Shown: piece by piece, positions 1,825 through 61,425 of the stretch | Layout of the letters: each line of letters opens with the position of its first letter | Numbering within the stretch: the first letter of the stretch is position 1 | Assembly (NCBI GenBank): GCA_964016885.1 | Contig: OZ024741.1 | Coordinates: 323,330,001-323,394,000, forward strand | DNA from: Eledone cirrhosa | Lineage: Eukaryota | Length of the DNA stretch: 64,000 nt | Direction of reading: 5' to 3' | Position numbers and translations under genes: made by a program | Notes under the pieces: generated by a model | What the model saw: only the letters and a program-made list of their open reading frames with translations | Told to the model about the DNA's origin: nothing | Databases searched by the model: none

Positions 1825-3603
1825 GAGGAGTATACAGAGGAGTTCTTTGATGCCACAACACTACATCAAGAAATGGCAACCATCAACCACATAGACATAA
1901 CGGAGGGGGATGTGGTGTACGCCATTGATGAAATTAGAACAGACTCGGCTGCTGGACCTGATGGATTCCCAGCAGTTCTCCTAAAAATATGTAAGCGGGC
2001 CTTAGCAACTCCACTGAAGATGCTCTTCAGAAGCTCCTTGGCTAGCGGTGTACTACCCAGGGAGCTGAAAGAAGGCACAATATGCCCTATCCATAAAGGA
2101 GGTAGTAGAGCGGAGGCCAAGAACTATAGGCCAGTCTCCCTGACGTCGCATATCAGTAAGGTCATGGAGCGAGTCGTAGGAAAGAAACTAATCACTTTCC
2201 TCGAAGAAAATGACCGCCTGACTAGCACGCAACATGGCTTCCGCCCAGGAAGAAGCTGCCTTACACAGCTGCTACATCACTACGACTGGGTACTGAGACA
2301 GCTACTAGACAGCTCACATGTAGACGTGATATATCTTGACTTTGCGAAGGCCTTTGACAAGGTCGACCACGGAATGATATGTCACAAACTACACGGACTC
2401 GGCATAACTGGAAAAGTAGGTGAGTGGCTGCATGGCTTCCTGAGGGACAGAAGCCAGGCAGTCGCAGCAAATGGGGCCCTCTCGAGGGAAACACCGATAA
2501 CAAGTGGGGTGCCTCAGGGGACAGTCCTGGGACCACTACTGTTTTTGGTGGCTCTCTAGGACATGCCCTCTGTGGTGCATGCAACAACATCCCTCACTAG
2601 CTATGCTGATGACACTAAGGTAGCACAGGCAATCAAAAACCCGGCTGACGCTGCCCTCTTACAGCAGGATCTGGATGCCATATACAGATGGGCGGAAGAA
2701 AACAACATGCAGTTTAATGCTGGCAAATTTCAAGCCCTACAATACAAACCTGCAAACACAAACACAAATATAGCGGAACACAGCTACACAGGACCAGGAG
2801 GGACCGATATCCCCGTGTCAAAATCGATACGAGACCTGGGCATAGACATGAGCGATGATGCATCTTTTTCTTCACACATCATGAAGGTGGCGACAGCATG
2901 TAGACGATTCGCTGGCTGGATCTTGAGGACTTTCCTTACAAGAGATCGAGACACCATGTTGACACTGTGGAGGACTTTTGTCCTAAGCCGCCTGGACTAC
3001 TGCTCCCAGCTGTGGTCACCCCATAGTGTCAAACTAACCACAGAGCTTGAGGCAATCCAGCGAAGCTACACCAAGAGGATTGCCAAGATGAGGGAGAAGA
3101 GCTACTGGGAGAGGCTGAAGGAACTGAACCTCTACTCCTTGGAGCGAAGACGGGAGAGATACGCAGTGATCTACATGTGGAAAATCCTGGAGGGACTAGC
3201 ACCAAACTTTGGCATTGGGAGCTGGACCAACCGTCGAACAGGACGTCACTGTGTGGTGCCAAAGGTCCCGTCTTCCACATCTAGAATAAGGAGCAGGTAT
3301 TGCAATAGCCTGGGATTCAAGGGCCCTCAACTCTTCAACAGGCTGCCGAGGCATCTGCGAGACTTGCATGACGTGGAGGTGGATGTCTTTAAGAAACATC
3401 TCGACACCTTGTTATCCAGGATCCCGGATGAGCCCACAGCAAGACACGAGGGAAACCTAAGGGCAGCAGCAACAAACTCCCTCCTACACCAGTGGCCAAC
3501 CTATACAGGCTGGAGATAAAATGTGTAGCAACAAGGGCGGTGCCCCAGCATGGCCTCAGCCGGATGGCTGAAACAGGTAAAAGAGTAAAAGAGTAAAAGA
3601 GTA
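1825..3603 (+). mobile_element. 5'-truncated CR1/L2-group LINE; RT ORF with premature stop (TAG 2557-2559); ORF ends 3519; (AAAAGAGT)n tail
   Basis: [65 protein letters not shown] motifs; 8-bp repeat tail. Confidence 0.93.
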
Positions 3604-4045: not shown

Positions 4046-4551
4046 AAGTTGGCACCCTTAACTCACAGTTGGGTGCGGATGCATTCATGTATATATGTGT
4101 GTGTCCGCATGTATCTGTGTGTTTCTAAATGTATTAATAACTCCCTCTGGTCGAGCAATCTTTGAAGTGTGGGGACAACTGGAAAGCTTCCATTACTCAT
4201 ACTTCTCGCCTTCTTCACTACCTCTTCTACGGCCTCGATATGAATACCCCCTCCGCCTCCGTGGTATTTTTTTCGTGGTTATAAGAGGCTTAGCTCTGTT
4301 TCTCGACCGTTATATCGCGTGACTATCTCCCCCTCCGCCTTTTGGGATTCTTTCTCACGTCGTGTAGACGCGTTCTTGAGACTAGTAAAATGAGGTATCC
4401 TCTTGATAAGTCGGCAGACCTCGCAAGGACTCTATATCTTTGATATATTGTTTTTGTTTATGCCACGAAACTACGTAGTCGAGGAATTTAGGAACAGTTT
4501 AGGTATGATACATTTTATTACTAATTATATCTAAATGTTTCTTCTCTCTTC

Positions 4552-4556
<5 letters not shown>
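4046..4556 (+). mobile_element. Truncated copy of the 595-bp retrozyme-like element (family B)
   Basis: Close match to 9907-10422; both ends in (TA)n. Confidence 0.85.
4398..4485 (+). ncRNA. Type I hammerhead ribozyme, U3-A8 core variant
   Basis: Stem I TCCTC/GAGGA; core TTGATAA 4403-4409; stem II GT(C)GGCA/TGCCAC; GAAA 4467-4470; CTACGTAG; GUC cleavage after 4480. Confidence 0.85.
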
Positions 4557-4642
<86 letters not shown>

Positions 4643-9498: not shown

Positions 9499-9666
9499 CA
9501 TATATATATATATACACGAATTTTCTTTCGTGGTATTTTCTTCGGGGTTATAAGAGGCTTAGCTCTGTTTCTCGACCGTTATATCGCGTGACTATCTCCC
9601 CCTCCGCCTTTTGGGATTCTTTCTCACGTCGTGTAGACGCGTTCTTGAGACTAGTAAAATGAGGTA

Positions 9667-9756
9667 TCCTCTTGATAAGTCGGCAGACCTCGCAAGGACT
9701 CTATATATTTATGATATATTGTTTTTGTTTATGCCACGAAACTACGTAGTCGAGGA
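9667..9756 (+). ncRNA. Type I hammerhead ribozyme, U3-A8 core
   Basis: TCCTC TTGATAA GTCGGCA..TGCCAC GAAA CTACGTAG TC GAGGA; cleavage after 9751. Confidence 0.85.
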
Positions 9757-10261
9757 ATTTAGGAGCAGTTTAGGTATGATACATTTTATTACTAATTATA
9801 TCTAAATGTTTCTTCTCTCTTCATAATGTATTTTTAACTCTGATACTGGTTCAGTCTAGTTCAACTGAATTGGTCTGTCCCAGTCATTCATTGAGCAACA
9901 TCGGTGAAGTTGGCACCCTTAACTCACAGTTGGGTGCGGATGCATTCATGTATATATGTGTGTGTCCGCGTGTATCTGTGTGTTTCTAAATATATTGTTA
10001 ATAACTCCCTCTGGTCGAGCAATCTTTGAGGTGTGGGGACAGCCGGAAAGCTTCCATTACTCATACTTCTCGCCTTCTTCACCACCTCTTCTACGGCCTC
10101 GATATAAATACCCCCTCCGCCTCCGTGGTATTTTCTTCGGGGTTATAAGAGGCTTAGCTCTGTTTCTCGACCGTTATATCGCGTGACTATCTCCCCCTCC
10201 GCCTTTTGGGATTCTTTCTCACGTCGTGTAGACGCGTTCTTGAGACTAGTAAAATGAGGTA

Positions 10262-10351
10262 TCCTCTTGATAAGTCGGCAGACCTCGCAAGGACTCTATA
10301 TATTTATGATATATTGTTTTTGTTTATGCCACGAAACTACGTAGTCGAGGA
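10262..10351 (+). ncRNA. Type I hammerhead ribozyme, U3-A8 core
   Basis: Same motif as 9667-9756; cleavage after 10346. Confidence 0.85.
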
Positions 10352-10420
10352 ATTTAGGAGCAGTTTAGGTATGATACATTTTATTACTAATTATATCTAA
10401 ATGTTTCTTCTCTCTTCATA

Positions 10421-12343
<1,923 letters not shown>

Positions 12344-15007: not shown

Positions 15008-16151
15008 TAAATTTAGTCCTTCATCAGTGATCTTCCAACCTTCATTGGTATTTCATCGCTTTAAAGACCATATACCTCCGGTTGGTGCGAGCAACGGCTA
15101 AAGAAAGTCGTTGGGACACGTAAATAGGGGGAACGAGCGAGACAGTAAACAATCAAAGATGGTAATGCAACGAAAAGTGAGGAAGAAGGCGTCAAGTCCC
15201 TGAAATCGATGAACATAAGTTCTGTGAAATCGTGGACGAGAGCGAATAAAGACCATACGACCTGGTCAAAGTGTGAGTGAGGAAAGAATCTCGCACAGGT
15301 CAAACGGGAGGAAGTAGGAGAGGGAGTAGCAGAGAGTGAGTGAGTGAAAGTGTGAGGAAGAGGCTAACAGAGAGAGTGACTGTTAGAGGAGGTAAAAGGA
15401 AGTGAGAGATACAGAGAAAAGGGGAAGCAGTAAGAAAGAAACAGACGGGTCACAGCGGAGGAAATTATATATGAATATGAAAACATGGCGTGCTGCGTGG
15501 TTGAAAATGGGTTACATATGAATAAATTTAGTCCTTCAATAATATATATATATATATTATTATTATCATTATTATCTCCCTATTAGTGGAGTAATGAGAG
15601 TAAGTTAAACAATTTTTCACTTTTTTATTGTGTTTTTATTTTGATATGCGCTCTAATTCATGCTATTAATTTTATCTCTCACTCTTCTAAGTTGTGAAAT
15701 AGACTGGTTTTTACCCACGCCGCTGCCGCATTCCAGCTCGCTACTATATCGCTCTATAATAGATAATCGCATTTAAAGCCCGTTAAAGGTTCTTGGCACT
15801 ACCATTGTTACTATCGCTTTCCTCTAGCCATGGGACTTGGAGACATGAGCCGAATGCTACCATTCTATTATACATCGATGTGGGACTGCTATTTCTAATA
15901 ACCATCATTTCACCTCTTAATAATTTATGTGTGCGACACGTTGGCTGAGAGTTTTTGACGGGAACGAAAAGATTGGTTTTCTATTCTCCCGCCACTACGT
16001 AAAATTTGTAAATCGGTGGCTAGTCGAGGGACAGAGTTGTATAGGATTCCAGTTGCTAATCGCTTTACCGTGTCGGTTGTCACAAACAGTCATAACCGGC
16101 ATGGGCTGGGGTTTGGATTCTGTCGATCGATTGGTTATTGATTAGGCGATA

Positions 16152-16262
16152 CCCGCTGATGAAGCCGCATAAGCTGATTGTGCATTGTTGCATAATATAT
16201 GCAGACGGATGGTGCAGTGCACCTTACTGCTGCATTAAGTGCGGCCGAAACTCAAGTCCGGG
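16152..16262 (+). ncRNA. Type I hammerhead ribozyme with long branched stem II
   Basis: Stem I CCCG/CGGG; CTGATGA 16156-16162; stem II GCCGCA/TGCGGC; GAAA 16247-16250; C-TCAA-G; GUC cleavage after 16258. Confidence 0.8.
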
Positions 16263-16967
16263 AACTATTATAGGCACCCGTTTTACGTGCGTTGTATTGA
16301 AGCAAATAACTATGTGTATACTCTGGGAATGTATCTTACATTCCCCATTGAGTACGCTGAGATACAACCGGTCCTGGCATTGATAAATATGCTGAGTCCG
16401 TCAATTCCTTATATATATATATGGAGATTGCTCTAACTTTACAGGTGATTGCCGTCTTTTACTGATCCTTCGATCTCACAAAATAGAATGACAAATGAGA
16501 ATATCGTAAAAGGGACATCTTAATTTCGTTGGATTATAGTTATAAACGCTTCTGCGACACGAGTATCATTCTATAAGTCTCAGTAATTATTATTTAATGG
16601 CAAGCCTAAGCAAGATGATCAGCAACCACGTAAACAACAGGTTTAACTTCAGAAGAAATGCCGTGGGTCTTTCATTCTTAGTGAATATAGAAAATACTTT
16701 TACAGGACTAGAACTGTCTCATTCTTTTGAAAATTATTCTTCACACACACACACGCATATATATATATTAACCTGTTAGTTCTTTCGTTACTTTGGTAAT
16801 GTGAAGTTGGGTTTTGCCTACCGCAATGTTCAATTTGTCAAGCTATTTAAACGTATGTTATTACTCTAAGGACCTACCCTTATTGAGTGCTTTGCTAACT
16901 CATTGCTATTGTAGGTCGACTTTGCTTGGCCACAGCCAAAGCTTCGATTTTACTAAGTTTCCACTTG

Positions 16968-17228: not shown

Positions 17229-17326
<98 letters not shown>

Positions 17327-17418
17327 CGAGGGAATTGTGGTAAGGAACCAGGTGGACCATAACGCACCAGAGTACTCAATACTTAGGGTAGTAGAGTGGG
17401 GGATAGGAAAAGGTATGA

Positions 17419-17512
17419 CCCCGACGGCAGAGCTCAAGCCGTTTCGACGGCTATTTCAGGACTAAATTAGAATTTTTAGCCTGGTAAATAAATAGCCGAA
17501 CTTATCAAGGGG
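17419..17512 (-). ncRNA. Type I hammerhead ribozyme, U3-A8 core
   Basis: On minus strand: CCCC TTGATAA G..GGCTATTT..AAATAGCC GTC GAAA CGGC TTGAGCTCT GCCG TC GGGG. Confidence 0.85.
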
Positions 17513-17529
17513 AACTTATATTGGAAGTT

Positions 17530-17623
17530 CCCCTTGATAAGTTCGGCTATTTATTTACCAGGCTAAAAGTTCTAATTTAGTCCTGAAATAGCCGTCGAAA
17601 CGGCTTGAGCTCTGCCGTCGGTG
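17530..17623 (+). ncRNA. Type I hammerhead ribozyme, U3-A8 core (one stem I mismatch)
   Basis: CCCC TTGATAA 17534-17540; GAAA 17597-17600; stem III CGGC/GCCG; GUC; GGTG. Confidence 0.8.
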
Positions 17624-17732
17624 TCATACCTTTTCCTATATATATATATATATATGAGGAGGACAGTAGCTTGAATTATTTACTGACTCAGTCTGTGGCA
17701 ACCCGCCCGACCCATGCCAGATTTGAATGATA

Positions 17733-23831: not shown

Positions 23832-24218
23832 TGTGTGTGTGTGTGCATGTGCAGAGAGAGAGGTAATTTATAATGAAACAGTTTCTTGCAGTGTGTGTGT
23901 AACAATAAAACTTCCCAAATCTCCACTAATGTCTCTCGACGTTCACATTCTCATCTCCAGTATGAAGTAATGTTGGTGTGAGTTGCTGTCTCAATAGGAA
24001 ACAGTATCAATGTGATTGGTGAAGACAGGAATAGGAATTTCAGTTGTTTGTTCTTGTTTGTGAACAATCTATGTTACTTCTGTGTTTAAACCGTAAGCTA
24101 GTCTCTTTCTCCACAACGACACATTCCCCAACACATACACACAGACACACACACAAACATATATATATGTAGTGAAAAGTTAGTGTCCGACGACTGATCT
24201 CACGCCGTTTCAACTCAG

Positions 24219-25126
24219 CAGATTCTAAGGATAGTGTATGAAGTGGAGGAGAGAGGTTATAGAATAGGTAAATCGAATGAGAGTAGGAGACAATAAAAGA
24301 TAATATAAAAAAATAAAAAAATGTATAGTGAGATATGAATAAAAAAATCACAATGCTATCTTACAATTACAGGTTAATAAGTTGTGAATAGAAAAAACTT
24401 GTAGAAATTGAGTAGTACCAGAACTGATACAAAATTAAAGGGGTTTAACACGTCTGCTATAAGTAGTTAGTAAAACGTATTCGGCCAATTCTATCTTAAA
24501 ATTACAGGGGTGGGGGAACTGATGCTACAGGGGCCCGATGGGCTGCATCAGGGTAGGCGAAAGGGGAAAAGCAGACGAGGAAGAAAATGGGGGGTGGAAG
24601 GAAGTGATAGGATGAGACAGGGGGAAGCAGAAGACAAAGAGGAAAAGAAAAGAAAAGAGATACATCTACCTAAGTAAGCTGGGGTTTCCCCTAACTTATT
24701 CAGCAAGTGTGTGTGTGTGTGGCGGGGGTGGGTGGGGTATCAGCACTTGTCTACTCACCCGGGTCGTTATTGGGTTTGAGGGCGAGGTAAGTCCTACGCA
24801 ATCTGTGTTTGCATGCGGTTACCAGTTCGTCTTTCTTGTTTAGGAGTTGGTCCTTCGAAAACAGCATTTGTAATGTTTCCTCCGAGCATAAGTTACACAG
24901 ACCCCTTTAATTTTGTATCAGTTCTGGTACTACTCAATTTCTACAAGTTTTTTTCTATTCTTAACTTATTAACCTGTAATTGTAAGAGAGTATTGTGATT
25001 TTTAAAATTCATTTCTCACTATATATATATATTTTTTTCTATTATCTTTTATTGTCTCCTACTCTCATTCGATTTACCTATTCTATAACCTCCCTCCTCC
25101 ACTTCATACACTATCCTTAGAATCTG
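24219..25126. repeat. 226-bp inverted repeat (24219-24444/24901-25126) of a truncated PLE
   Basis: Arms complementary by eye; spacer holds the GIY-YIG remnant. Confidence 0.85.
24751..24903 (-). pseudogene. Penelope-like element GIY-YIG endonuclease C-terminal fragment
   Basis: GLCNLCSEETLQMLFSKDQLLNKKDELVTACKHRLRRTYLALKPNNDPGE*, matching the CxLCxxE..LLNK(R/K)xEL..CRH ending of PLE ORFs. Confidence 0.75.
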
Positions 25127-25296
25127 ATGTATACATATCACTTTCAACGCTTGACCGCTCCACTCACACCCCTATTGTTCTACAGGCGAGTTCAGCCACC
25201 CCTACCACTCACCAAATGCCACGATAGACTTATTTGTGTTTACAAGACATTTTAACCAATCCTCTTGACAACTACAATCTTCCCATATAAGGAAGT

Positions 25297-25394
25297 ACCC
25301 CCTTGACAAGTTCGGCTATTTATTCACCAGGCTAAAAATTCTAATTTAGTCCAGAAATAGCCGTCGAAATGGCTTGAGCTCTGCCCTCGGGGGT
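25297..25394 (+). ncRNA. Type I hammerhead ribozyme, U3-A8 core (family G, TTGACAA), stem III decayed
   Basis: ACCCCC TTGACAA ... GAAA 25366-25369 TGGC..GCCC TC GGGGGT. Confidence 0.7.
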
Positions 25395-25486
25395 CATAGT
25401 TTTTCCTATTTCCCACTCTACTACCCTAAGTATTGAGTACTCTGGTGCGTTATGGTCCATCTGGTTCCTTACCACAATTCCTTTGT

Positions 25487-25530
<44 letters not shown>

Positions 25531-25789: not shown

Positions 25790-25822
25790 AAGAAATTAAA
25801 AGATGGTTAAAAAAGTTCCATG

Positions 25823-25893
25823 TATTTTATTATGCGCATTTCAAAAACAAATATCATCCTGGGACGATATTTGCGTTCTCATCAGATAAAATA
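25823..25893 (-). ncRNA. Type I hammerhead ribozyme, canonical core
   Basis: TATTTTAT CTGATGA ..GCAAATATCGTCC/GGATGATATTTGT.. GAAA TGCGCA TA ATAAAATA (8-bp stem I). Confidence 0.85.
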
Positions 25894-26016
25894 GGGAGAC
25901 ATGATATGAAGCTTAAAAAAAAACACCTGTGAGCAAGGTAGTGTCTGATCAACATATGTTGATTAGACACTACCTTGCTCACAAGTGTTTTTTTTAAGCT
26001 TCATATCATGTCTCCC

Positions 26017-26087
26017 TATTTTATCTGATGAGAACGCAAATATCGTCCCAGGATGATATTTGTTTTTGAAATGCGCATAATAATATA
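26017..26087 (+). ncRNA. Type I hammerhead ribozyme, canonical core
   Basis: CTGATGA 26025-26031; GAAA 26068-26071; TGCGCA; UA; one stem I mismatch. Confidence 0.82.
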
Positions 26088-26211
26088 CATGGAACTTTTT
26101 TAACCATCTTTTAATTTCTTCTTATATATACTCCAGTCTAATAAACTGTTGAGTGCTACTTATCCGATATTTGCATTGCTTTATTGTGCTACAATAAAAC
26201 TCACCTCCTAC

Positions 26212-31461: not shown

Positions 31462-34400
31462 AATGTGTAGTAATGTGTAGTAATGTGTAGTTATGTGTAG
31501 TAATGTGTAGTAATATGTAGTAATATGTAGTAATGTGTAATAATATGTAGTAATATGTAGCAATATCTAGCAATATGTAGTAATGTGTAGTAATGTGTAG
31601 TAATATGTAGTAATGTGTAGTAATGTATAGTAATATGTAGTAATGTGTAGTAAAATATAGTAATATGTAGTAATATGTAGTTATGTGTAGTAATGTGTAG
31701 TAATGTGTAGTAAAATGTAGTAATATGTAGTAATGTGTAGTAATGTGTAGTAATGTGTAGTAATGTGTAGCAATGTGTAGTAATATGTAGTAATGTGTAG
31801 TAATGTATAGTAATATGTAGTAATGTGTAGTAAAATATAGTAATATGTAGTAATATGTAGTAATATGTAGTTATGTGTAGTAATGTGTAGTAATGTGTAG
31901 TAATGTGTAGTAATGTGTAGAAATATGTAGTAATGTGTAGTAATGTGTAGTATTGTGTAGTAATATGTAGTAATGTGTAGTAATGTGTAGTAATGTGTAG
32001 TAATATGTAGTAATGTGTAGTAATATGTAGTAATGTGTAGTAATGTGTAGTAATGTGTACTAATATGTAGTAATGTATAGTAATGTGTAGTAATATGTAG
32101 TAATATGTAGTAATGTGTAGTAATGTGTAGTAATGTTTAGTAATATGTTGCAATATGTAGTAATATATAGTAATGTGTAGTAAAGTGTAGTAATGTGTAG
32201 TAATGTGTAGTAATATGTAGTAATGTGTAGTAATGTGTAGTAATGTGTAGTAATGTGTAGCAATGTGTAGTAATGTATAGTAATATGTAGTAATGTGTAG
32301 TAATATGTAGTAATGTGTAGTAATATGTAGTAATGTGTAGTAATGTGTAGTAATATGTAGTAATATGTAGCAATATGAAGTAATATGTAGTAATGTGTAC
32401 TAATATGTAGTAATGTGTAGTAATGTGTAGTAATGTGTAGTAATATGTAGTAATATGTAGCAATGTGTAGTAAAATGTAGTAATATGTAGTAATGTGTAG
32501 TAATATGTAGTAATGTGCAGTAATATGTAGTAATATGTAGTAATGTGTAGTAATGTGTAGTAATATGTAGTAATGTGTAGTAATATTTAGTAATGTGTAG
32601 TAATATGTAGTAATATGTAGTAATTTGTAGTAATGTGTAGTAATGTGTAGTAATGTGTAGTAATATGTAGTAATTTATAACAATATGTAGTAATATGTAG
32701 TAATGTGTAGTAATGTGTAGTAATATGTAGTAATGTGTAGTAATGTGTAGTAATATGTAGTAATGTGTAGTAATGTGTAGTAATGTGTTGTAATGTGTAG
32801 TAATATGTAGCAATATATAGTAATATGTAGTAATATGTAGTAATGTGTAGTAATGTGTAGTAATGTATAGCAATATGTAGTAATCTGTAGTAATGTGTAG
32901 TAATATGTAGTAATATGTAGTAATATGTAGCAATATGTAGCAATATCTAGTAATATCTAGTAATATGTAGTAATGTGTAGTAATGTGTAGTAATGTATAG
33001 TAATATGTAGTAATGTGTAGTAAAATATAGTAATATGTAGTAATATGTAGTTATGTGTAGTAATGTGTAGTAATGTGTAGTAATGTGTAGTAAAATGTAG
33101 TAATGTGTAGTAATGTGTAGTAATGTGTAGTAATGTGTAGTATTGTGTAGTAATGTGTAGTAATATGTAGTAATATGTAGTAATGTGGAGTAATGTGTAG
33201 TAATGTGTAGTAATGTGTAGTAATGTATAGTAATATGTAGTAATGTGTAGTAAAATATAGTAATATGTAGTTATGTGTAGTAATGCGCAGTAATGTGTAG
33301 TAATGTGTAGTAAAATGTAGTAATATGTAGTAATGTGTAGTAATGTGTAGTAATGTGTAGTAATGTGTAGTAATGTGTAGTAATATGTAGTAATTTGTAG
33401 TAATATGTAGTAATATGTAGCAATATGTAGTAATGTGTAGTAATGTGTAGTAATATGTAGTAATGTGTAGTAATCTGTAGTAATGTGTAGTAATATGTAG
33501 TAATGTGTAGTAATGTGTAGTAATGTGTAGTAATATGTAGTAATGTGTAGTAATGTGTAGTAATGTGTAGTAATGTGTAGTAATATGTAGTAATGTGTAG
33601 TAATAGGTAGTAATGTGTAGTAATGTGTAGTAATGTGTAGTAATGTGTACTAATATGTAGTAATGTATAGTAATGTGTAGTAATATGTAGTAATATGTAG
33701 TAATGTGTAGTAATGTGTAGTAATGTGTACTAATATGTAGTAATGTATAGTAATGTGTAGTAATATGTAGTAATATGTAGTAATGTTTAGTAATATGTTG
33801 CAATATGTAGTAATATATAGTAATGTGTAGTAATGTGTAGTAATGTGTAGTAATGTGTAGTAATATGTAGTAATGTGTAGTAATGTGTAGTAATATGTAG
33901 TAATGTGTAGCAATGTGTAGTAATGTATAGTAATATGTAGTAATGTGTAGCAATATGTAGTAATGTGTACTAATATGTAGTAATGTGCAGTAATGTGTAG
34001 TAATGTGTAGTAATATGTAGTAATGTGTAGTAATGTGTAGTAATGTGTAGTAATGTGTAGTAATATGTAGTAATATGTAGCAATATGAAGTAATATGTAG
34101 TAATGTGTACTAATATGAAGTAATGTGTAGTAATGTGCAGTAATATGTAGTAATGTGTAGTAATGTGTAGTAATGTGTAGTAATATGTAGTAATATGTAG
34201 TAATATGTAGTAATGTGTAGTAAAATGTAGTAATATGTAGTAATGTATAGTAATATGTAGTAATGTGTAGTAATATGTAGTAATATGTAGGAATGTGTAG
34301 TAATATGTAGTAATGTGTAGTAATGTGTAGTAATATGTAGTAATGTGTAGTAATATGTAGTAATGTGTAGTAATGTGTAGTAATGTATAGTAATGTGTAG

Positions 34401-37400
34401 TAATGTATAGTAATGTGTAGTAATATGTAGTAATATGTAGTAATGTGTAGTAATGTGTAGTAATGTGTAGTAATGTGTAGTAATATGTAGTAATTTATAG
34501 CAATACGTAGTAATATGTAGTAATGTGTAGTAATGTGTAGTAATATGTAGTAATGTGTAGTAATGTGTAGTAATATGTAGTAATGTGTAGTAATGTGTAG
34601 TAATGTGTAGTAATGTGTAGTAATATGTAGCAATATATAGTAATATGTAGTAATATGTAGTAATATGTAGTAATGTGTAGTAATATGTAGTAATGTGTAG
34701 TAATGTGTAGTAATATGTAGTAATGTGTAGTAATATGTAGTAATGTGTAGTAATGTGTAGTAATATGTACTAATGTGTAGTAATGTGTAGTAATGTGTAG
34801 TAATGTGTAGTAATATGTAGCCATATATAGTAATATGTAGTAATATGTAGTAATGTGTAGTAATGTGTAGTAATGTGTAGTAATATGTAGTAATTTATAG
34901 CAATATGTAGTAATATGTAGTAATGTGTAGTAATGTGTAGTAATGTGTAGTAATATGTAGCAATATGTAGTAATTTGTAGTAATGTGTAGTAATGTGTAG
35001 TAATGTGTAGTAATGTGTAGTAATGTGTAGTAATATGTAGTAATCTGTAGCAATATGTAGTAATGTGTAGTAATGTGTAGTAATGTGTAGTAATGTGTAG
35101 TAATGTGTAGTAATATGTAGTAATGTGTAGTAATATGTAGTAATGTGTAGTAATATGTAGTAATGTGTAGTAATGTGTAGTAATATGTAGTAATGTGTAG
35201 TAATGTGTAGTAAAATGTAGTAATATGTAGCAATATGTAGTAATTTGTAGTAATGTGTAGTAATGTGTAGTAATATGTAGTAATGTGTAGTAATGTGTAG
35301 TAATATGTAGTAATGTGTTGTAATATGTATTAATATGTAGTAATGTGTAGTAATGTGTAGTAATGTGTAGTAAAATATAGTAATATGTAGTAATATGTAG
35401 TAATATGTAGTAATATGTAGTAATGTGTAGTAATGTGTAGTAATGTGTAGTAATGTGTAGTAATATGTAGTAATATGTAGTAATGTGTAGTAATGTGTAG
35501 TAATGTGTAGTAATGTGTAGTAATATGTAGTAATGTGTAGTAAAATGTAGTAATATGTAGTAATTTGTAGTAATGTGTAGTAATGTGTAGTAATATGTAG
35601 TAATGTGTAGTAATATGTAGTAATCTGTAGCAATATGTAGTAATGTGTAGTAATGTGTAGTAATGTGTAGTAATGTGTAGTAATATGTAGTAATGTGTAG
35701 TAATATGTAGTAATGTGTAGTAATGTGTAGTAATGTGTAGTAATATGTAGTAATGTGTAGTAATATGTAGTAATGTGTAGTAATGTGTAGTAATATGTAG
35801 TAATGTGTAGTAATGTGTAGTAATATGTAGTAATGTGTAGTAATGTGTACTAATATGTAGTAATGTATAGTAATGTGTAGTAATATGTAGTAATATGTAG
35901 TAATGTGAAGTAATGTGTAGTAATGTGTAGTAATATGTAGCAATATATAGTAATATATAGTAATGTGTAGTAATATGTAGTAATCTGTAGTAATGTGTAG
36001 TAATGTGTAGTAATATGTAGTAATGTGTAGTAATATGTAGTAATGTGTAGTAATGTGGAGTAATATGTAGTAATTTGTAGTAATGTGTAGTAATGTGTAG
36101 TAATATGTAGTAATGTGTAGTAATATGTAGTAATGTGTAGTAATATGTAGCAATATGTAGTAATATATAGTAATGTGTAGTAATGTTTAGTAATGTGTAG
36201 TAATGTGTAGTAATATGTAGTAATGTATAGTAATATGTAGTAATATATAGCAATATGTAGTAATATGTAGTAATTTGTAGTAATATGTAGTAATGTGTAG
36301 TAATGTGTAGTAATGTGTAGTAATGTGTAGTAATATGTAGTAATATGTAGTAATGTGTAGTAATATGTAGCAATATCTAGTAATATGTAGTAATGTGTAT
36401 TAACGTGTAGTAATGTGTAGTAATGTGTAGTAATGTGTAGTAATATGTAGTAATATGTAGCAATATGAAGTAATATGTAGTAATGTGTACTAATATGAAG
36501 TAATGTGTAGTAATGTGCAGTAATATGTAGTAATGTGTAGTAATGTGTAGTAATGTGTAGTAATATGTAGTAATATGTAGTAATATGTAGTAATGTGTAG
36601 TAAAATGTAGTAATATGTAGTAATGTATAGTAATATGTAGTAATGTGTAGTAATATGTAGTAATATGTAGGAATGTGTAGTAATATGTAGTAATGTGTAG
36701 TAATGTGTAGTAATATGTAGTAATGTGTAGTAATGTGTAGTAATATGTAGTAATGTGTAGTAATATGTAGTAATGTATAGTAAAATGTAGTAATATGTAT
36801 TAATGTGTAGTAATGTGTAGTAATGTGTAGTAATGTGTAGTAATATGTAGTAATGTGTAGTAATGTGTAGTAATGTATAGTAATGTGTAGTAATGTATAG
36901 TAATGTGTAGTAATATGTAGTAATATGTAGTAATGTGTAGTAATGTGTAGTAATGTGTAGTAATGTGTAGTAATATGTAGTAATTTATAGCAATACGTAG
37001 TAATATGTAGTAATGTGTAGTAATGTGTAGTAATATGTAGTAATGTGTAGTAATGTGTAGTAATATGTAGTAATGTGTAGTAATGTGTAGTAATGTGTAG
37101 TAATGTGTAGTAATATGTAGCAATATATAGTAATATGTAGTAATATGTAGTAATATGTAGTAATGTGTAGTAATATGTAGTAATGTGTAGTAATGTGTAG
37201 TAATATGTAGTAATGTGTAGTAATATGTAGTAATGTGTAGTAATGTGTAGTAATATGTACTAATGTGTAGTAATGTGTAGTAATGTGTAGTAATGTGTAG
37301 TAATATGTAGCCATATATAGTAATATGTAGTAATATGTAGTAATGTGTAGTAATGTGTAGTAATGTGTAGTAATATGTAGTAATTTATAGCAATATGTAG

Positions 37401-40400
37401 TAATATGTAGTAATGTGTAGTAATGTGTAGTAATGTGTAGTAATATGTAGCAATATGTAGTAATTTGTAGTAATGTGTAGTAATGTGTAGTAATGTGTAG
37501 TAATGTGTAGTAATGTGTAGTAATATGTAGTAATCTGTAGCAATATGTAGTAATGTGTAGTAATGTGTAGTAATGTGTAGTAATGTGTAGTAATGTGTAG
37601 TAATATGTAGTAATGTGTAGTAATATGTAGTAATGTGTAGTAATATGTAGTAATGTGTAGTAATGTGTAGTAATATGTAGTAATGTGTAGTAATGTGTAG
37701 TAAAATGTAGTAATATGTAGCAATATGTAGTAATTTGTAGTAATGTGTAGTAATGTGTAGTAATATGTAGTAATGTGTAGTAATGTGTAGTAATATGTAG
37801 TAATGTGTTGTAATATGTATTAATATGTAGTAATGTGTAGTAATGTGTAGTAATGTGTAGTAAAATATAGTAATATGTAGTAATATGTAGTAATATGTAG
37901 TAATATGTAGTAATGTGTAGTAATGTGTAGTAATGTGTAGTAATGTGTAGTAATATGTAGTAATATGTAGTAATGTGTAGTAATGTGTAGTAATGTGTAG
38001 TAATGTGTAGTAATATGTAGTAATGTGTAGTAAAATGTAGTAATATGTAGTAATTTGTAGTAATGTGTAGTAATGTGTAGTAATATGTAGTAATGTGTAG
38101 TAATATGTAGTAATCTGTAGCAATATGTAGTAATGTGTAGTAATGTGTAGTAATGTGTAGTAATGTGTAGTAATATGTAGTAATGTGTAGTAATATGTAG
38201 TAATGTGTAGTAATGTGTAGTAATGTGTAGTAATATGTAGTAATGTGTAGTAATATGTAGTAATGTGTAGTAATGTGTAGTAATATGTAGTAATGTGTAG
38301 TAATGTGTAGTAATATGTAGTAATGTGTAGTAATGTGTACTAATATGTAGTAATGTATAGTAATGTGTAGTAATATGTAGTAATATGTAGTAATGTGAAG
38401 TAATGTGTAGTAATGTGTAGTAATATGTAGCAATATATAGTAATATATAGTAATGTGTCGTAATATGTAGTAATCTGTAGTAATGTGTAGTAATGTGTAG
38501 TAATATGTAGTAATGTGTAGTAATATGTAGTAATGTGTAGTAATGTGGAGTAATATGTAGTAATTTGTAGTAATGTGTAGTAATGTGTAGTAATATGTAG
38601 TAATGTGTAGTAATATGTAGTAATGTGTAGTAATATGTAGCAATATGTAGTAATATATAGTAATGTGTAGTAATGTTTAGTAATGTGTAGTAATGTGTAG
38701 TAATATGTAGTAATGTATAGTAATATGTAGTAATATATAGCAATATGTAGTAATATGTAGTAATTTGTAGTAATATGTAGTAATGTGTAGTAATGTGTAG
38801 TAATGTGTAGTAATGTGTAGTAATATGTAGTAATATGTAGTAATGTGTAGTAATATGTAGCAATATCTAGTAATATGTAGTAATGTGTAGTAATGTGTAG
38901 TAATATGTAGTAATATGTAGTAATGTGTAGTAGTATGTAGTAATGTGTAGTAATATGTAGTAATGTGTAGTAATGTATAGTAAAATGTAGTAATGTGTAG
39001 TAATGTGTTATAATGTGTAGTAATATGTAGTAATGTGTAGTAATGTGTAGTAATGTGTAGTAATATGTAGTAATATGTAGTAATTTGTAGTAATGTGTAG
39101 TAATGTGTAGTAATGTGTAGTAATGTGTAGTAATGTGTAGTAATGTGTAGTAATGTGTAGTAATGTGTAGTAATATGTAGTAATTTATAGCAATATGTAG
39201 TAATGTGTAGTAATGTGTAGTAATGTGTAGTAATGTGTAGTAATGTGTAGTAATATGTAGTAATGTGTAGTAATATGTAGTAATGTGTAGTAATATGTAG
39301 TAATGTGTAGTAATGTGTAGTAATATGTAGTAATGTGTAGTAATGTGTAGTAAAATGTAGTAATATGTAGCAACATGTAGTAATTTGTAGTAATGTGTAG
39401 TAATGTGTAGTAATGTGTAGTAATATGTAGTAATGTGTAGTAATGTGTAGTAATATGTAGTAATGTGTAGTAATGTGTAGTAATGTGTAGTAAAATGTAG
39501 TAATATGTAGTAATTTGTAGTAATATGTAGTAATGTGTAGTAATGTGTAGTAATGTGTAGTAATGTGTAGTAATATGTAGTAATGTGTAGTAATGTGTAG
39601 TAATATGTAGTAATGTGTAGTAAAATGTAGTAATATGTAGTAATTTGTAGTAATGTGTAGTAATGTGTAGTAATATGTAGTAATGTGTAGTAATATGTAG
39701 TAATCTGTAGCAATATGTAGTAATGTGTAGTAATGTGTAGTAATATGTAGTAGTGTGTAGTAATGTGTAGTAATATGTAGTAATTTGTAGTAATGTGTAG
39801 TAATGTGTAGTAATATGTAGTAATGTGTAGTAATATGTAGTAATGTGTAGTAATATGTAGTAATGTGTAGCAAAATGTAGTAATATGTAGTAATTTGTAG
39901 TAATGTGTAGTAATGTGTAGTAATATGTAGTAATGTGTAGTAATATGTAGTAATCTGTAGCAATATGTAGTAATGTGTAGTAATGTGTAGTAATGTGTAG
40001 TAATGTGTAGTAATGTGTAGTAATATGTAGTAATGTGTAGTAATATGTAGTAATGTGTAGTAATGTGTAGTAATGTGTAGTAATGTGTCGTAATATGTAG
40101 TAATATGTAGTAATGTGTAGTAATGTGTACTAATATGTAGTAATGTATAGTAATGTGTAGTAATATGTAGTAATGTAGTAATGTGTAGTAATGTGTAGTA
40201 ATGTGTAGTAATGTGTAGTAATATGTAGTAATCTGTAGCAATATGTAGTAATGTGTAGTAATGTGTAGTAATGTGTAGTAATGTGTAGTAATGTGTAGTA
40301 ATATGTAGTAATCTGTAGCAATATGTAGTAATGTGAGAGTCGGCTTTATTCGTAGTGATTTTTTGGGGCGGTGTTAACTTTAACATGTGTAGTAATGTGT

Positions 40401-43400
40401 AGTAATGTGTAATAATGTGTAGTAATGTGTAGTAATATGTAGTAATGTGTAGTAATATGTAGTAATGTGTAGTAATATGTAGCAATATGTAGTAATATAT
40501 AGTAATGTGTAGTAATGTGTAGTAATGTGTAGTAATGTGTAGTAATATGTAGTAATGTGTAGTAATGTGTAGTAATATGTAGTAATTTGTAGTAATATGT
40601 AGTAATGTGTAGTAATGTGTAGTAATGTGTAGTAATGTGTAGTAATGTGTAGTAATGTGTAGTAATATGTAGTAATATGTAGTAATGTGTAGTAATATGT
40701 AGCAATATCTAGTAATATGTAGTAATGTGTAGTAATGTGTAGTAATATGTAGTAATGTGTAGTAATATGTAGTAATGTGTAGTAATGTATAGTAAAATGT
40801 AGTAATGTGTAGTAATATGTAGTAATGTGTAGTAATATGTAGTAATATGTAGTAATGTGTAGTAATGTGTAGTAATATGTAGTAATGTGTAGTAATGTGT
40901 AGTAATGTGTAGTAATGTGTAGTAATATGTAGTAATATGTAGTAATATGTAGTAATATGTAGTAATGTGTTGCAATATGTAGTAATATGTAGTAATCTGT
41001 AGCAATATGTAGTAATGTATTATAATGTGTAGTAATATGTAGTAATGTGTAGTAATGTGTAGTAATGTGTAGTAATATGTAGTAATGTGTAGTAATATGT
41101 AGTAATGTGTAGTAATGTGTAGTAATGTGTAGTAATATGTAGTAATATGTAGTAATGTGTTGTAAAATGTAGTAATATGTAGTAATGTGTAGTAATATGT
41201 AGTAATGTGTAGTAATATGTAGTAATGTGTAGTAATGTGAAGTAATGTGTAGTAATGTGTAGTAATATGTAGCAATATATAGTAATATATAGTAATGTGT
41301 CGTAATATGTAGTAATCTGTAGTAATGTGTAGTAATGTGTAGTAATATGTAGTAATGTGTAGTAATATGTAGTAATGTGTAGTAATGTGGAGTAATATGT
41401 AGTAATTTGTAGTAATGTGTAGTAATGTGTAGTAATATGTAGTAATGTGTAGTAATATGTAGTAATGTGTAGTAATATGTAGCAATATGTAGTAATATAT
41501 AGTAATGTGTAGTAATGTTTAGTAATGTGTAGTAATGTGTAGTAATATGTAGTAATGTATAGTAATATGTAGTAATATATAGCAATATGTAGTAATATGT
41601 AGTAATTTGTAGTAATATGTAGTAATGTGTAGTAATGTGTAGTAATGTGTAGTAATGTGTAGTAATATGTAGTAATATGTAGTAATGTGTAGTAATATGT
41701 AGCAATATCTAGTAATATGTAGTAATGTGTAGTAATGTGTAGTAATATGTAGTAATATGTAGTAATGTGTAGTAGTATGTAGTAATGTGTAGTAATATGT
41801 AGTAATGTGTAGTAATGTATAGTAAAATGTAGTAATGTGTAGTAATGTGTTATAATGTGTAGTAATATGTAGTAATGTGTAGTAATGTGTAGTAATGTGT
41901 AGTAATATGTAGTAATATGTAGTAATTTGTAGTAATGTGTAGTAATGTGTAGTAATGTGTAGTAATGTGTAGTAATGTGTAGTAATGTGTAGTAATGTGT
42001 AGTAATGTGTAGTAATATGTAGTAATTTATAGCAATATGTAGTAATGTGTAGTAATGTGTAGTAATGTGTAGTAATGTGTAGTAATGTGTAGTAATATGT
42101 AGTAATGTGTAGTAATATGTAGTAATGTGTAGTAATATGTAGTAATGTGTAGTAATGTGTAGTAATATGTAGTAATGTGTAGTAATGTGTAGTAAAATGT
42201 AGTAATATGTAGCAACATGTAGTAATTTGTAGTAATGTGTAGTAATGTGTAGTAATGTGTAGTAATATGTAGTAATGTGTAGTAATGTGTAGTAATATGT
42301 AGTAATGTGTAGTAATGTGTAGTAATGTGTAGTAAAATGTAGTAATATGTAGTAATTTGTAGTAATATGTAGTAATGTGTAGTAATGTGTAGTAATGTGT
42401 AGTAATGTGTAGTAATATGTAGTAATGTGTAGTAATGTGTAGTAATATGTAGTAATGTGTAGTAAAATGTAGTAATATGTAGTAATTTGTAGTAATGTGT
42501 AGTAATGTGTAGTAATATGTAGTAATGTGTAGTAATATGTAGTAATCTGTAGCAATATGTAGTAATGTGTAGTAATGTGTAGTAATATGTAGTAGTGTGT
42601 AGTAATGTGTAGTAATATGTAGTAATTTGTAGTAATGTGTAGTAATGTGTAGTAATATGTAGTAATGTGTAGTAATATGTAGTAATGTGTAGTAATATGT
42701 AGTAATGTGTAGCAAAATGTAGTAATATGTAGTAATTTGTAGTAATGTGTAGTAATGTGTAGTAATATGTAGTAATGTGTAGTAATATGTAGTAATCTGT
42801 AGCAATATGTAGTAATGTGTAGTAATGTGTAGTAATGTGTAGTAATGTGTAGTAATGTGTAGTAATATGTAGTAATGTGTAGTAATATGTAGTAATGTGT
42901 AGTAATGTGTAGTAATGTGTAGTAATGTGTCGTAATATGTAGTAATATGTAGTAATGTGTAGTAATGTGTACTAATATGTAGTAATGTATAGTAATGTGT
43001 AGTAATATGTAGTAATGTAGTAATGTGTAGTAATGTGTAGTAATGTGTAGTAATGTGTAGTAATATGTAGTAATCTGTAGCAATATGTAGTAATGTGTAG
43101 TAATGTGTAGTAATGTGTAGTAATGTGTAGTAATGTGTAGTAATATGTAGTAATCTGTAGCAATATGTAGTAATGTGAGAGTCGGCTTTATTCGTAGTGA
43201 TTTTTTGGGGCGGTGTTAACTTTAACATGTGTAGTAATGTGTAGTAATGTGTAATAATGTGTAGTAATGTGTAGTAATATGTAGTAATGTGTAGTAATAT
43301 GTAGTAATGTGTAGTAATATGTAGCAATATGTAGTAATATATAGTAATGTGTAGTAATGTGTAGTAATGTGTAGTAATGTGTAGTAATATGTAGTAATGT

Positions 43401-44883
43401 GTAGTAATGTGTAGTAATATGTAGTAATTTGTAGTAATATGTAGTAATGTGTAGTAATGTGTAGTAATGTGTAGTAATGTGTAGTAATGTGTAGTAATGT
43501 GTAGTAATATGTAGTAATATGTAGTAATGTGTAGTAATATGTAGCAATATCTAGTAATATGTAGTAATGTGTAGTAATGTGTAGTAATATGTAGTAATGT
43601 GTAGTAATATGTAGTAATGTGTAGTAATGTATAGTAAAATGTAGTAATGTGTAGTAATATGTAGTAATGTGTAGTAATATGTAGTAATATGTAGTAATGT
43701 GTAGTAATGTGTAGTAATATGTAGTAATGTGTAGTAATGTGTAGTAATGTGTAGTAATGTGTAGTAATATGTAGTAATATGTAGTAATATGTAGTAATAT
43801 GTAGTAATGTGTTGCAATATGTAGTAATATGTAGTAATCTGTAGCAATATGTAGTAATGTATTATAATGTGTAGTAATATGTAGTAATGTGTAGTAATGT
43901 GTAGTAATGTGTAGTAATATGTAGTAATGTGTAGTAATATGTAGTAATGTGTAGTAATGTGTAGTAATGTGTAGTAATATGTAGTAATATGTAGTAATGT
44001 GTTGTAAAATGTAGTAATATGTAGTAATGTGTAGTAATATGTAGTAATGTGTAGTAATATGTAGTAATGTGTAGTAATGTGTAGTAATATGTAGTAATAT
44101 GTAGTAATGTGTAGTAATGTGTAGTAATATGTAGTAATGTGTAGTAATATGTAGTAATGTGTAGTAATATGTAGTAATGTGTAGTAAACTGTAGTAATAT
44201 GTAGTAATGTGTAGTAATATGTAGTAATGTGTAGTAATATATAGTAATGTGTAGTAATGTGTAGTAATATGTAGTAATATGTAGTAATGTGTAGTAATGT
44301 GTAGTAATATGTAGTAATGTGTAGTAATATGTAGTAATGTGTAGCAATATGTAGTAATGTGTAGTAATGTGTAGTAATATGTAGTAATATGTAGGAATGT
44401 GTAGTAATATGTAGTAATGTGTAGTAATGTGTAGTAATATGTCGTAATGTGTAGTAATATGTAGCAATATCTAGTAATATGTAGTAATGTGTATTAACGT
44501 GTAGTAATATGTAGTAATGTGTAGTAATGTGTAGTAATATGTAGTAATGTGTAGTAATGTGTAGTAATATGTAGTAATGTGTAGTAATATGTAGTAATAT
44601 GTAGTAATGTGTAGTAATGTGTAGTAATATGTAGTAATGTGTAGTAATGTGTAGTAATGTGTAGTAATATGTAATAATATGTAGTAATGTGTAGTAATAT
44701 GTAGTAATGTGTAGTAATATGTAGTAATGTGTAGTAATATGTAGTAATGTGTAGTAATGTGTAGTAATATGTAATAATGTGTAGTAATATGTAGGAATGT
44801 GTAGTAATGTATAGTAATATGTAGTAATGTGTAGTATTGTGTAGTAATGTGTAGTAATGTGTAGTAATGTGTAGTAATGTGTA
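31462..44883. repeat. 13.4-kb 10-bp satellite with higher-order duplications
   Basis: (TAAT[A/G]TGTAG)n; variant strings recur at 2490- and 2842-bp offsets. Confidence 0.98.
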
Positions 44884-44884
44884 C

Positions 44885-45956
44885 TGAGGTGTAGAAAAGA
44901 ATTTTTTCAGAGCTGCTTTAATGTTTATATTGGCTCCTTGGTACATGCCGGTGTTACTGCCGGTGGTGTTGAAGGACATACCAATTACTCTATCTTCAAT
45001 TCTGAGTAATTGAATTTCCTTCAAAACAACTTCAGCGACTGGTCGTCCGGTTACATCTCTTGTAATAGGAACACATAAGAGCTCCTCCTCCTCTTTCCCC
45101 CGTAACTAAAACTTCAATCCGATCTTCGAATGTGCTAGATCGGGAAGCCGATAGTAATAATTCTCTATCCCAGTGGACGACGAGCCAAAATATGTTTTCA
45201 GGTGGGAAAGTGGATAACTCGGTTTCTCACAGTGAATGGTTCTTGCTCGATAAACAGTTGAGTATGAAACCGAAAGTTCAGACACATCATGACCAAGACT
45301 CTCCGCAATTGCAATGTTAGAAGTCCTTGCTTGTCGTACCGATAGTTTCTCACGTTCCCACGTGTGGCGTTGAGAGTCGGCTTTATTCGTAGTGATTTTT
45401 TGGGGCGGTGTTAACTTTAACATTTCCTTATCATCATCACGCATAGCTGAGCTGGATGACAAATTTCAAGAGCTACTTCTCGGACATCTTGATTCCTTCA
45501 TCTTTTTCTTTTTCTTACTTTCATATCGTGAATCCTCTTTTCTTTCTTCTGAATTGTTCTCGCATATTCTGCTTCGACAGCAGCCAGAGACGAAGGCATT
45601 CGATCTACCTGCCGTATCTCAAAGAAAGCTTTGTCTTCAGATGGGACATCCTTTCGTTCGAGAACGTCCTGACTTGCAATATCAAAAATTTCCTCAAGAT
45701 CACCTATCCAAATTTTACACTTTGCAATTGCTTTGTCAGTCATCCTTGATTTTTCTTTTTGCAGTCCTTATACAATTTATCGATTGAAGTGCAGATGTTT
45801 TTTTTTCCATATTGGTTGGGATATTTGTTTTTTTACGATAACTGAAATCTCTTCGAGTTCGATTTGATGGAAGAGTAAACAACAGCACTTGATGTTTGGT
45901 GGCAAGTCGAATCTGAGGTAACTACCCCTCGGGATTTTTTTCAAGCTCGTTTCCAT
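44885..45956 (-). pseudogene. Decayed DNA transposase, hATm-like; 3' part replaced by satellite
   Basis: LEEIFDIA..EDKAFF, YSTVYRAR, LVVHWD, LLCVP, VIGMSFNTTGSNTG motifs across frameshifts. Confidence 0.7.
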
Positions 45957-61163: not shown

Positions 61164-61425
61164 CTATCTATTAAAAAACAATTTTAAAGAGGACGTGGGT
61201 CCCCCCTGCGTCGGGCCCATTAACCGCGTCCTCCTAAAAAACTATCCCACCCCCTCCCCAAACACCCACACAACTCCAAGCTCCCCAACCACACAACACA
61301 CTGATGCCCCTACACTTCCACAAACCACCACCCCACCCAACAACCCATCCCCCACCCTAATGGAAATTGTGCAGCCCGATACCCGGGACGCAGAGAGGTA
61401 AGTGCCTTTTCTCTTCACCACCAAC

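Follow-up and report, generated by a model that had tools for sequence, protein, structure and literature searches.

Minimal hammerhead ribozymes with a U3-A8 core pair are known from the pLTRs of Cercyon Penelope-like elements in Schistosoma mansoni, where about 1,300 hits are reported (Cervera and De la Pena 2014, PMC4209133). The same compensatory core pair is described as a rare variant among natural hammerheads, in a report which rejects other core changes (Perreault et al. 2011, PMC3088659). In Penelope-like elements, dimer-type ribozymes are marked by palindromic helix III regions (PMC4209133); inverted, 5'-truncated copies and one-sided tails are described, and the role of the hammerhead is termed unclear (PMC8557442). 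For the Poseidon element PAc of Anolis, the tail extends from one of two internal priming sites to the other, insertion in vitro is independent of the ribozyme, and cleavage was found unnecessary in vitro (Frangieh et al. 2024, PMC11167929). Type I hammerheads derived from a pLTR are also found in non-LTR retrozymes (10.64898/2026.07.22.740005).

The DNA analyzed here, indicated as "the window", is a stretch of 64,000 nucleotides (G000:C2:323330001-323394000) from the 3.0 Gb, microsatellite-rich genome of Eledone cirrhosa. It contains a hairpin of 237 nt with arms of 115 nt, as had been stated in a preliminary description of the sequence; the arms (17403-17517 and 17525-17639) differ by 2 mismatches. 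That description missed that the hairpin, at 17323-17639, is the usual inverted insertion form of a Penelope-like element: it corresponds to the last 200 bases of the retroelement, present as an inverted, truncated insertion in (TA)n. Neither the U3-A8 pair nor the hairpin is in itself unusual; the motif is real, its setting is ordinary, and the core variant is no novelty, having already been published (PMC4209133, PMC3088659). The reading favored here, with a probability of about 0.72, is that of an inverted, truncated insertion whose hammerhead is slow or conditional and trims tandem transcripts, helpful but not essential for the element, and probably inert at this locus. The parts of the hairpin and of the related insertion are reported in Table 1.

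Table 1. Position of the hairpin, of the related insertion and of their parts within the window.
Position	Strand	Feature	Details
17323..17520	-	5'-truncated copy of the 3' end of the element (ribozyme and tail)	runs into (TA)n
17323..17402	-	tail of 80 nt, delimited by the two fixed 3' end points of the element family	on one arm only
17419..17512	-	intact type I hammerhead motif	U3 at 17508, A8 at 17503
17518..17524		spacer at the inversion point	7 nt
17525..17639	+	inverted copy without tail	short 3' end point, followed by (TA)n
17530..17623	+	second hammerhead motif	U3 at 17534; mismatch in stem I, at T17622
24216..25489		second insertion of the same element family	
24216-24902	-	second insertion, inverted arm	includes the end of the ORF
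24901-25489	+	second insertion, 3' UTR, ribozyme and tail	
25298..25393	+	third hammerhead motif, decayed	U3 at 25303; 15.2-16.2 mismatch; CUC triplet

With the Cercyon ribozymes the motif shares the type I order, the location within a pLTR, the U3-A8 core, a short stem I, a long stem II and a palindromic helix III region, as well as the occurrence in pairs on opposite strands, 100-700 bp apart in Cercyon (PMC4209133). It differs in helix III, which here has 4-5 bp and a loop of 7-9 nt, while in Cercyon it is nearly absent, and in the stem II region, which here is 56 nt long and needs no extra base between A9 and G10.1. U3-A8, rare in PMC3088659, is the family norm here, where a mismatched 3/8 state has been amplified too.

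Relatives were collected by a DNA search, which returned 1,422 candidates, 40 of them scored, and the ORF was reached by walking upstream in the copies. It contains RT and GIY-YIG motifs, lies on the same strand as the ribozyme and stops about 700-950 nt before the core. In a young subfamily (L236, G000:C1:91473000-91481000, and L237) tandem units of 3,542 nt, identical at 3,537 of 3,542 positions (99.9%), carry an intact ORF of 719 aa, which is 89% identical to that of an element more closely related to the window copy. In these intact tandem elements the motif is found inside the pLTR, 190 nt separate the predicted cut from the start codon that follows it, and their 3' end is 87% identical, over 187 nt, to the minus-strand copy of the window. 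Judged from the sequence, the subfamily is very young and probably active.

The 719-aa protein contains RWR at 37 (R for K), DKT at 117 with no DKG, and YRDD at 348, followed toward the C-terminus by CxCX5C at 572, VIY...YIG at 591, CxxC at 670 and CxH at 698. Its look-alikes in a language-model search fall into clusters with HTH_animal, RVT_1 and GIY-YIG, and 820 homologues at E<=1e-20 were found among 7,992 scored. No significant Pfam family was found for 6 element proteins, and a PDB sequence search gave a single irrelevant match (E 0.17). None of 51 pattern matches in metagenome contigs was confirmed as a relative, while a search of sequencing runs listed 3 contig runs from one study and no RNA run. 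The element is an EN+ Penelope-like element, as indicated by the single ORF with RT and C-terminal GIY-YIG, the hammerhead in the pLTR, the tandem and inverted insertions and the one-sided tail. Its probable membership in the Hydra clade rests on the RW[K/R], DKT (for DKG), CxCX5C linker, CxxC and CxH motifs and on the preference for (TA)n; the Neptune clade, an initial guess, was dropped for Hydra on the protein motifs. These motifs, the C-terminal GIY-YIG, the (TA)n targets and a ribozyme near the 3' end are all shared with the Hydra clade as described by Craig et al. 2021 (PMC8557442). The unit is longer, at 3.54 kb against generally less than 3 kb in that clade; in addition, 26 of 26 Hydra-clade rows of File S2 are C3-G8, with short loops 2 and 3, although the descriptor used there may bar other cores (PMC8557442). 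The non-LTR retrozymes, defined by a non-coding tandem unit, were also considered and rejected, since the family has an intact ORF: in contrast to them, it encodes its own RT/endonuclease, and at this locus an inverted fragment is present in place of a tandem array (10.64898/2026.07.22.740005). A related element (L037:5223-6131, minus strand, and L048), with a protein identity of 29-45%, appears to end in a C3-G8 hammerhead with a helix III palindromic by eye, and is a possible outgroup.

Hammerhead positions are numbered according to the general convention. The type I core is complete (U4 G5 A6 N7, A9, G12 A13 A14, A15.1-U16.1 and H17, in type I order), and the Watson-Crick pair between positions 3 and 8 is U3-A8 in all three window copies; it is absent in the C3·A8 subfamilies discussed below. 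The hammerhead motif claimed in the preliminary description is borne out by the minus copy, which has all the parts of type I: its stem III of 4 bp closes a 9-nt loop containing GAGCUC, the cut is predicted after C17, at 17423, and stems I-III form in the free fold (z = -3.24, with none of 200 shuffles equally stable). Stem I is missing from the free fold of the plus arm, and the free fold of the third copy is not a hammerhead. Weak points are found as well: at the base of stem II, G10.1-C11.1 is isolated by a 2x1 loop in the window copy, with a pair probability of 0.10, and the probability of stem I is just 0.01-0.04 in two longer native contexts, while it is predicted in one shorter context. 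A competing hairpin burying GAAA was ruled out (probability 0). No hammerhead model was matched in the 150 of 264 rows listed by Rfam, nor in the 9 rows of a further search; the long stem II and the variant core likely put the motif outside the Rfam hammerhead models.

Other details of the preliminary description need correction. The GUC-GGGG end, assigned to both strands, is present on the minus strand, while the plus strand reads GGTG at 17620-17623. The third copy, said to be altered only at position 7, also carries T25370 and C25386, which break the 15.2-16.2 pair and give the triplet CUC. Its stem I arms were not lengthened together: among 86 copies examined, the 23 U3-A8 copies with five C have four G in 19 cases, fewer in 3 and five in 1, so that the five-C run is a subfamily trait, and the five-G run is private to this copy.

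In the flanks of stem I (L002, L236) an upstream GGAA and a downstream TTCC can prolong the stem past an internal loop, and the end of this extended helix coincides with the short 3' end point. A near-copy of stem I and of the core start (CCTCTTGACAA) is found about 37 nt upstream of the core in L002 and its relatives, and at about 25260-25275 in the window; it can pair with the real core in predicted folds, and might act as a decoy or a switch.

That the motif is an efficient stand-alone ribozyme, allowed to cut as a monomer by a stem III of 4-5 bp and a long stem II, is considered unlikely. The isolated minus copy is predicted to form stems I-III with probabilities of 0.86-0.98, only 0.8 kcal/mol off the active layout, and in the youngest subfamily stem III has five pairs and A10.2-U11.2 is paired too; fungal ribozymes of Penelope-like elements with a large helix III do cut as monomers (PMC4209133), and U3-A8 pairs are reported, secondhand, as active in vitro (PMC3088659). 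Yet the palindrome of loop III is conserved: GAGCTC is retained in 96 of 107 sampled copies, although 6% of random 9-mers contain a 6-nt palindrome by chance. The dimer is also predicted to be the stronger form, at -24.5 kcal/mol against 2 x -5.3 for the hairpins of the helix III segment, and at -74.3 against -60.4 kcal/mol for the whole motif, a difference of 14 which excludes concentration terms. Moreover, efficient cutting would strip the 3' priming sites from the RNA being copied, lineages with C3·A8 have been amplified, and the tested metazoan ribozymes of Penelope-like elements are slow or protein-dependent (PMC4209133, PMC11167929). Monomeric activity, suggested in the preliminary description, appears possible on paper, while the palindromic loop III would point to dimers. 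For the favored slow or conditional ribozyme, trimming of tandem transcripts would probably be aided by such dimers, or by the protein of the element.

At the locus itself, RNA transcribed across the hairpin in either direction contains an antisense arm before each ribozyme and is predicted to fold as a single duplex (-220 and -230 kcal/mol), with the ribozyme stems at zero probability; the window hairpin copies are therefore likely inert. At most, the hairpin could yield double-stranded RNA, with small RNAs from the duplex as a possible by-product. Its interpretation as a microRNA precursor, or as a product of chance or of the assembly, is hardly credible. Rfam does report a match to mir-3938 at 17481-17561, but this scores 53 bits, below the gathering score of 94, and any perfect palindrome would score likewise; of 59 inverted pairs sampled in the genome, 41 have an identical layout, and reversed pattern controls gave no match, by which a chance origin was ruled out.

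Exact matches to the 5'-half pattern are 2,008 in the genome, and those to the 3' half 49,316, with none for the reversed controls; four 5'-half patterns gave 2,008, 2,164, 2,143 and 275 matches, against the 49,316 of the 3' half. In an ungapped extension of 107 copies, sampled from the first places listed on contig C1 (loci L178-L235), 79 stop 10-29 nt upstream of C11.1, within the 3' strand of stem II: by stalling the reverse transcriptase, the stem of the ribozyme itself may set off fold-back. The whole core is kept in a minority of copies, to which those of the window belong. At the other end, two fixed 3' end points, 80 nt apart, are used exactly by 64 and 66 of 193 copies; in wider bins the numbers rise to 86 and 85, with 22 copies ending elsewhere, and TATATA is found within 100 nt after the end of 174 of the 193. 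The 59 inverted pairs comprise 41 with one long and one short end, 2 short with short, 1 long with long and 15 unclassified.

By analogy with another Penelope element, the protein would nick (TA)n and start reverse transcription at two internal sites, and such priming would account for the one-sided tail. Both priming sites are 3' of the cut and the copies run through it, which implies that the copied template would be either uncut or rejoined at the cut site. Two internal priming sites defining a tail, a ribozyme within the pLTR and, as we infer here, uncut RNA as template are common to PAc (PMC11167929), which differs in belonging to another clade, in its C3-G8 core, in an ORF overlapping the ribozyme, and in a tail of 30-40 bp, against the 80 nt found here.

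The hammerhead fold is backed by covariation in stem II and by the freedom of position 7. In 168 copies, those passing an 80% filter among 205 collected, position 7 takes all four bases, while a second allele reaches 5% in none of the 13 other core columns; the sample is biased, because many loci were fetched with patterns fixing the 5' half. In a comparison of constraint, core and stems gave 1 of 47 columns and the flanks 20 of 188, a trend only (p = 0.086). Among 25 subfamily representatives selected by hand, three stem II pairs differ between lineages in both of their bases, in 7-9 rows each, and 88% of the cells pair, against 28-47% in slid controls. Two of five whole-structure measures failed to beat shuffles (211/500 and 447/500), and the stem II covariation traces mostly to one deep split. 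In stems I and III no real change of both paired bases is seen, and what speaks for them is sequence conservation. The tail is conserved together with the ribozyme.

Several other repeats share the window. The 595-bp family (4046-4560 and 9529-10426) is tandem, has a perfectly palindromic helix III and, as already noted in the preliminary description, a U3-A8 pair; its top matches are 99% identical, among 1,220 genome candidates. It is young and retrozyme-like, and fits the non-LTR retrozyme kind (10.64898/2026.07.22.740005); an autonomous partner was looked for and not found. The claim that it resembles the hairpin family only in the core is right for the whole of stem II, where 1,807 of 3,000 shuffles score equally well, but not for its base: both families begin stem II with G-T-(T)-CGGC, matched by 7 of 20,000 shuffles in a post-hoc test. 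At 16150-16270 (+) lies another hammerhead motif of type I, a C3-G8 one, in which A9 is followed by an extra A and stem II is very long and stable. A second inverted-repeat insertion, at 25790-26125, has C3-G8 motifs at 25885 (-) and 26025 (+), and a further C3-G8 family, at 1316 (+) and 7274 (-), features an A+T palindromic helix III adjoining (TA)n. ORFs resembling, by eye, pieces of LINE-type endonuclease/RT are located at 61402-63998 (+) and 2560-3516 (+), and a long satellite, with a 10-bp period and an extreme GC skew of about 0.9, at about 31500-44900.

The pair between positions 3 and 8 shifts across the subfamilies of the element. Of the 2,008 matches of one 5'-half pattern, 1,652 have U3-A8, 337 lack U3 and 24 lack A8: U3-A8, described as conserved, is the majority state, without being strictly conserved. 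Among the first 100 listed of the 337 matches lacking U3, 94 are C3·A8, 88 of these with G7; 3 of the 24 lacking A8 are C3-G8. In a second subfamily U3-A8 is found in 100 of 100 matches listed, while in a third C3·A8 is found in 37 of 100. A wider pattern retrieves 1,886 C3·A8 matches, each inverted pair counting twice. The preliminary description had pointed to independent variation of the two positions as evidence against it; this is partly what was found, position 3 changing without position 8 in these 1,886 matches. G8 occurs in 110 matches: the 100 listed include 83 U3·G8, 15 C3-G8 and 2 A3·G8. An old lineage shows G8 in all six listed copies with G7; a second U3·G8 group has its own stem II, and was fetched by a G8 pattern, so that its majority state may differ. 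The amplified states other than C3·A8 (U-A, U·G and C-G) are all able to pair.

C3·A8 corresponds to two amplified subfamilies, in which the remainder of the motif is intact about as often as in U3-A8 copies (23 of 50 and 49 of 102, respectively). Their history was traced in a tree of the ORF only (about 540 nt; 41 of 54 eligible rows, at most 6 per class, from 245 cores; midpoint root), on which we relied instead of a 3' UTR subfamily tree that had put the young lineage on a long branch. U3·G8 lies on long old branches, followed by U3-A8 and then by the two C3·A8 subfamilies, within which the youngest U3-A8 elements are nested (97/91, 100/100, 100/98). Union of the 12 C3·A8/G7 rows in one group, chosen after seeing the tree, is rejected (p-AU 7e-5), and the ORF tree is matched by one of the ribozyme region in which positions 3, 7 and 8 had been masked. 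Either the lineage went from U-A to C·A and back to U-A, or C3 arose twice in a G7 background; under either history, C3·A8 templates have been copied many times. Two other origins were ruled out: loss of one T, the inspected C3 copies being of the same length as their U3 sisters, and transfer of the ribozyme to another ORF, as locus L130 had suggested, given that other C3·A8 copies carry the family ORF. In 16 C3·A8 loci no ORF of at least 400 aa with YRDD or YIG is present, the ORFs there being broken or truncated, and the copies may have been mobilized in trans by the protein of others. Since a ribozyme acts on its own RNA, such mobilization would leave the point standing.

Single mismatches at 3/8 usually cripple hammerheads. 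Published examples are C3G and G8C (PMC11167929). A literature search, with Lunse et al. 2017, the likeliest source, outside its scope, found no report of amplified C3·A8 ribozyme families, and the available text of PMC4209133 reports none. From the amplification of the C3·A8 lineages we infer that a fully paired 3/8 is favored, not required. The wide spread of sister lineages with a broken pair suggests that the cut may not be needed for jumping. At slightly better than even odds, a single lineage walked from U·G or C-G to U-A, to C·A and again to U-A, staying mobile while mismatched; cleavage would then be dispensable in vivo, or C3·A8 would still cut, through a C·A wobble, with help from a protein, or in a shifted register pairing C3 with G7.

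The success of C3·A8 could also mean that the motif no longer cuts, its fold being retained as a binding site or priming platform for the protein of the element. The otherwise preserved motif of the two successive C3·A8 subfamilies, the joint conservation of tail and ribozyme, and the normal insertion of ribozyme-dead mutants in vitro (PMC11167929) would all agree with this, but position 7 is free where the other core bases are fixed across subfamilies, a pattern expected from catalysis; in addition, the other amplified 3/8 states can pair, and the youngest elements are again U3-A8. This explanation is accordingly rated as improbable, and a slow or conditional ribozyme, trimming tandem transcripts, is preferred.

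What is new is the shifting 3/8 pair across subfamilies, together with a large helix III whose loop is palindromic: a modest variant, and a useful test system. With successive subfamilies differing at one core pair, and intact young copies, the rate of cleavage can be compared with genomic success, and the subfamilies constitute a ready series for testing the purpose of the ribozymes of Penelope-like elements.
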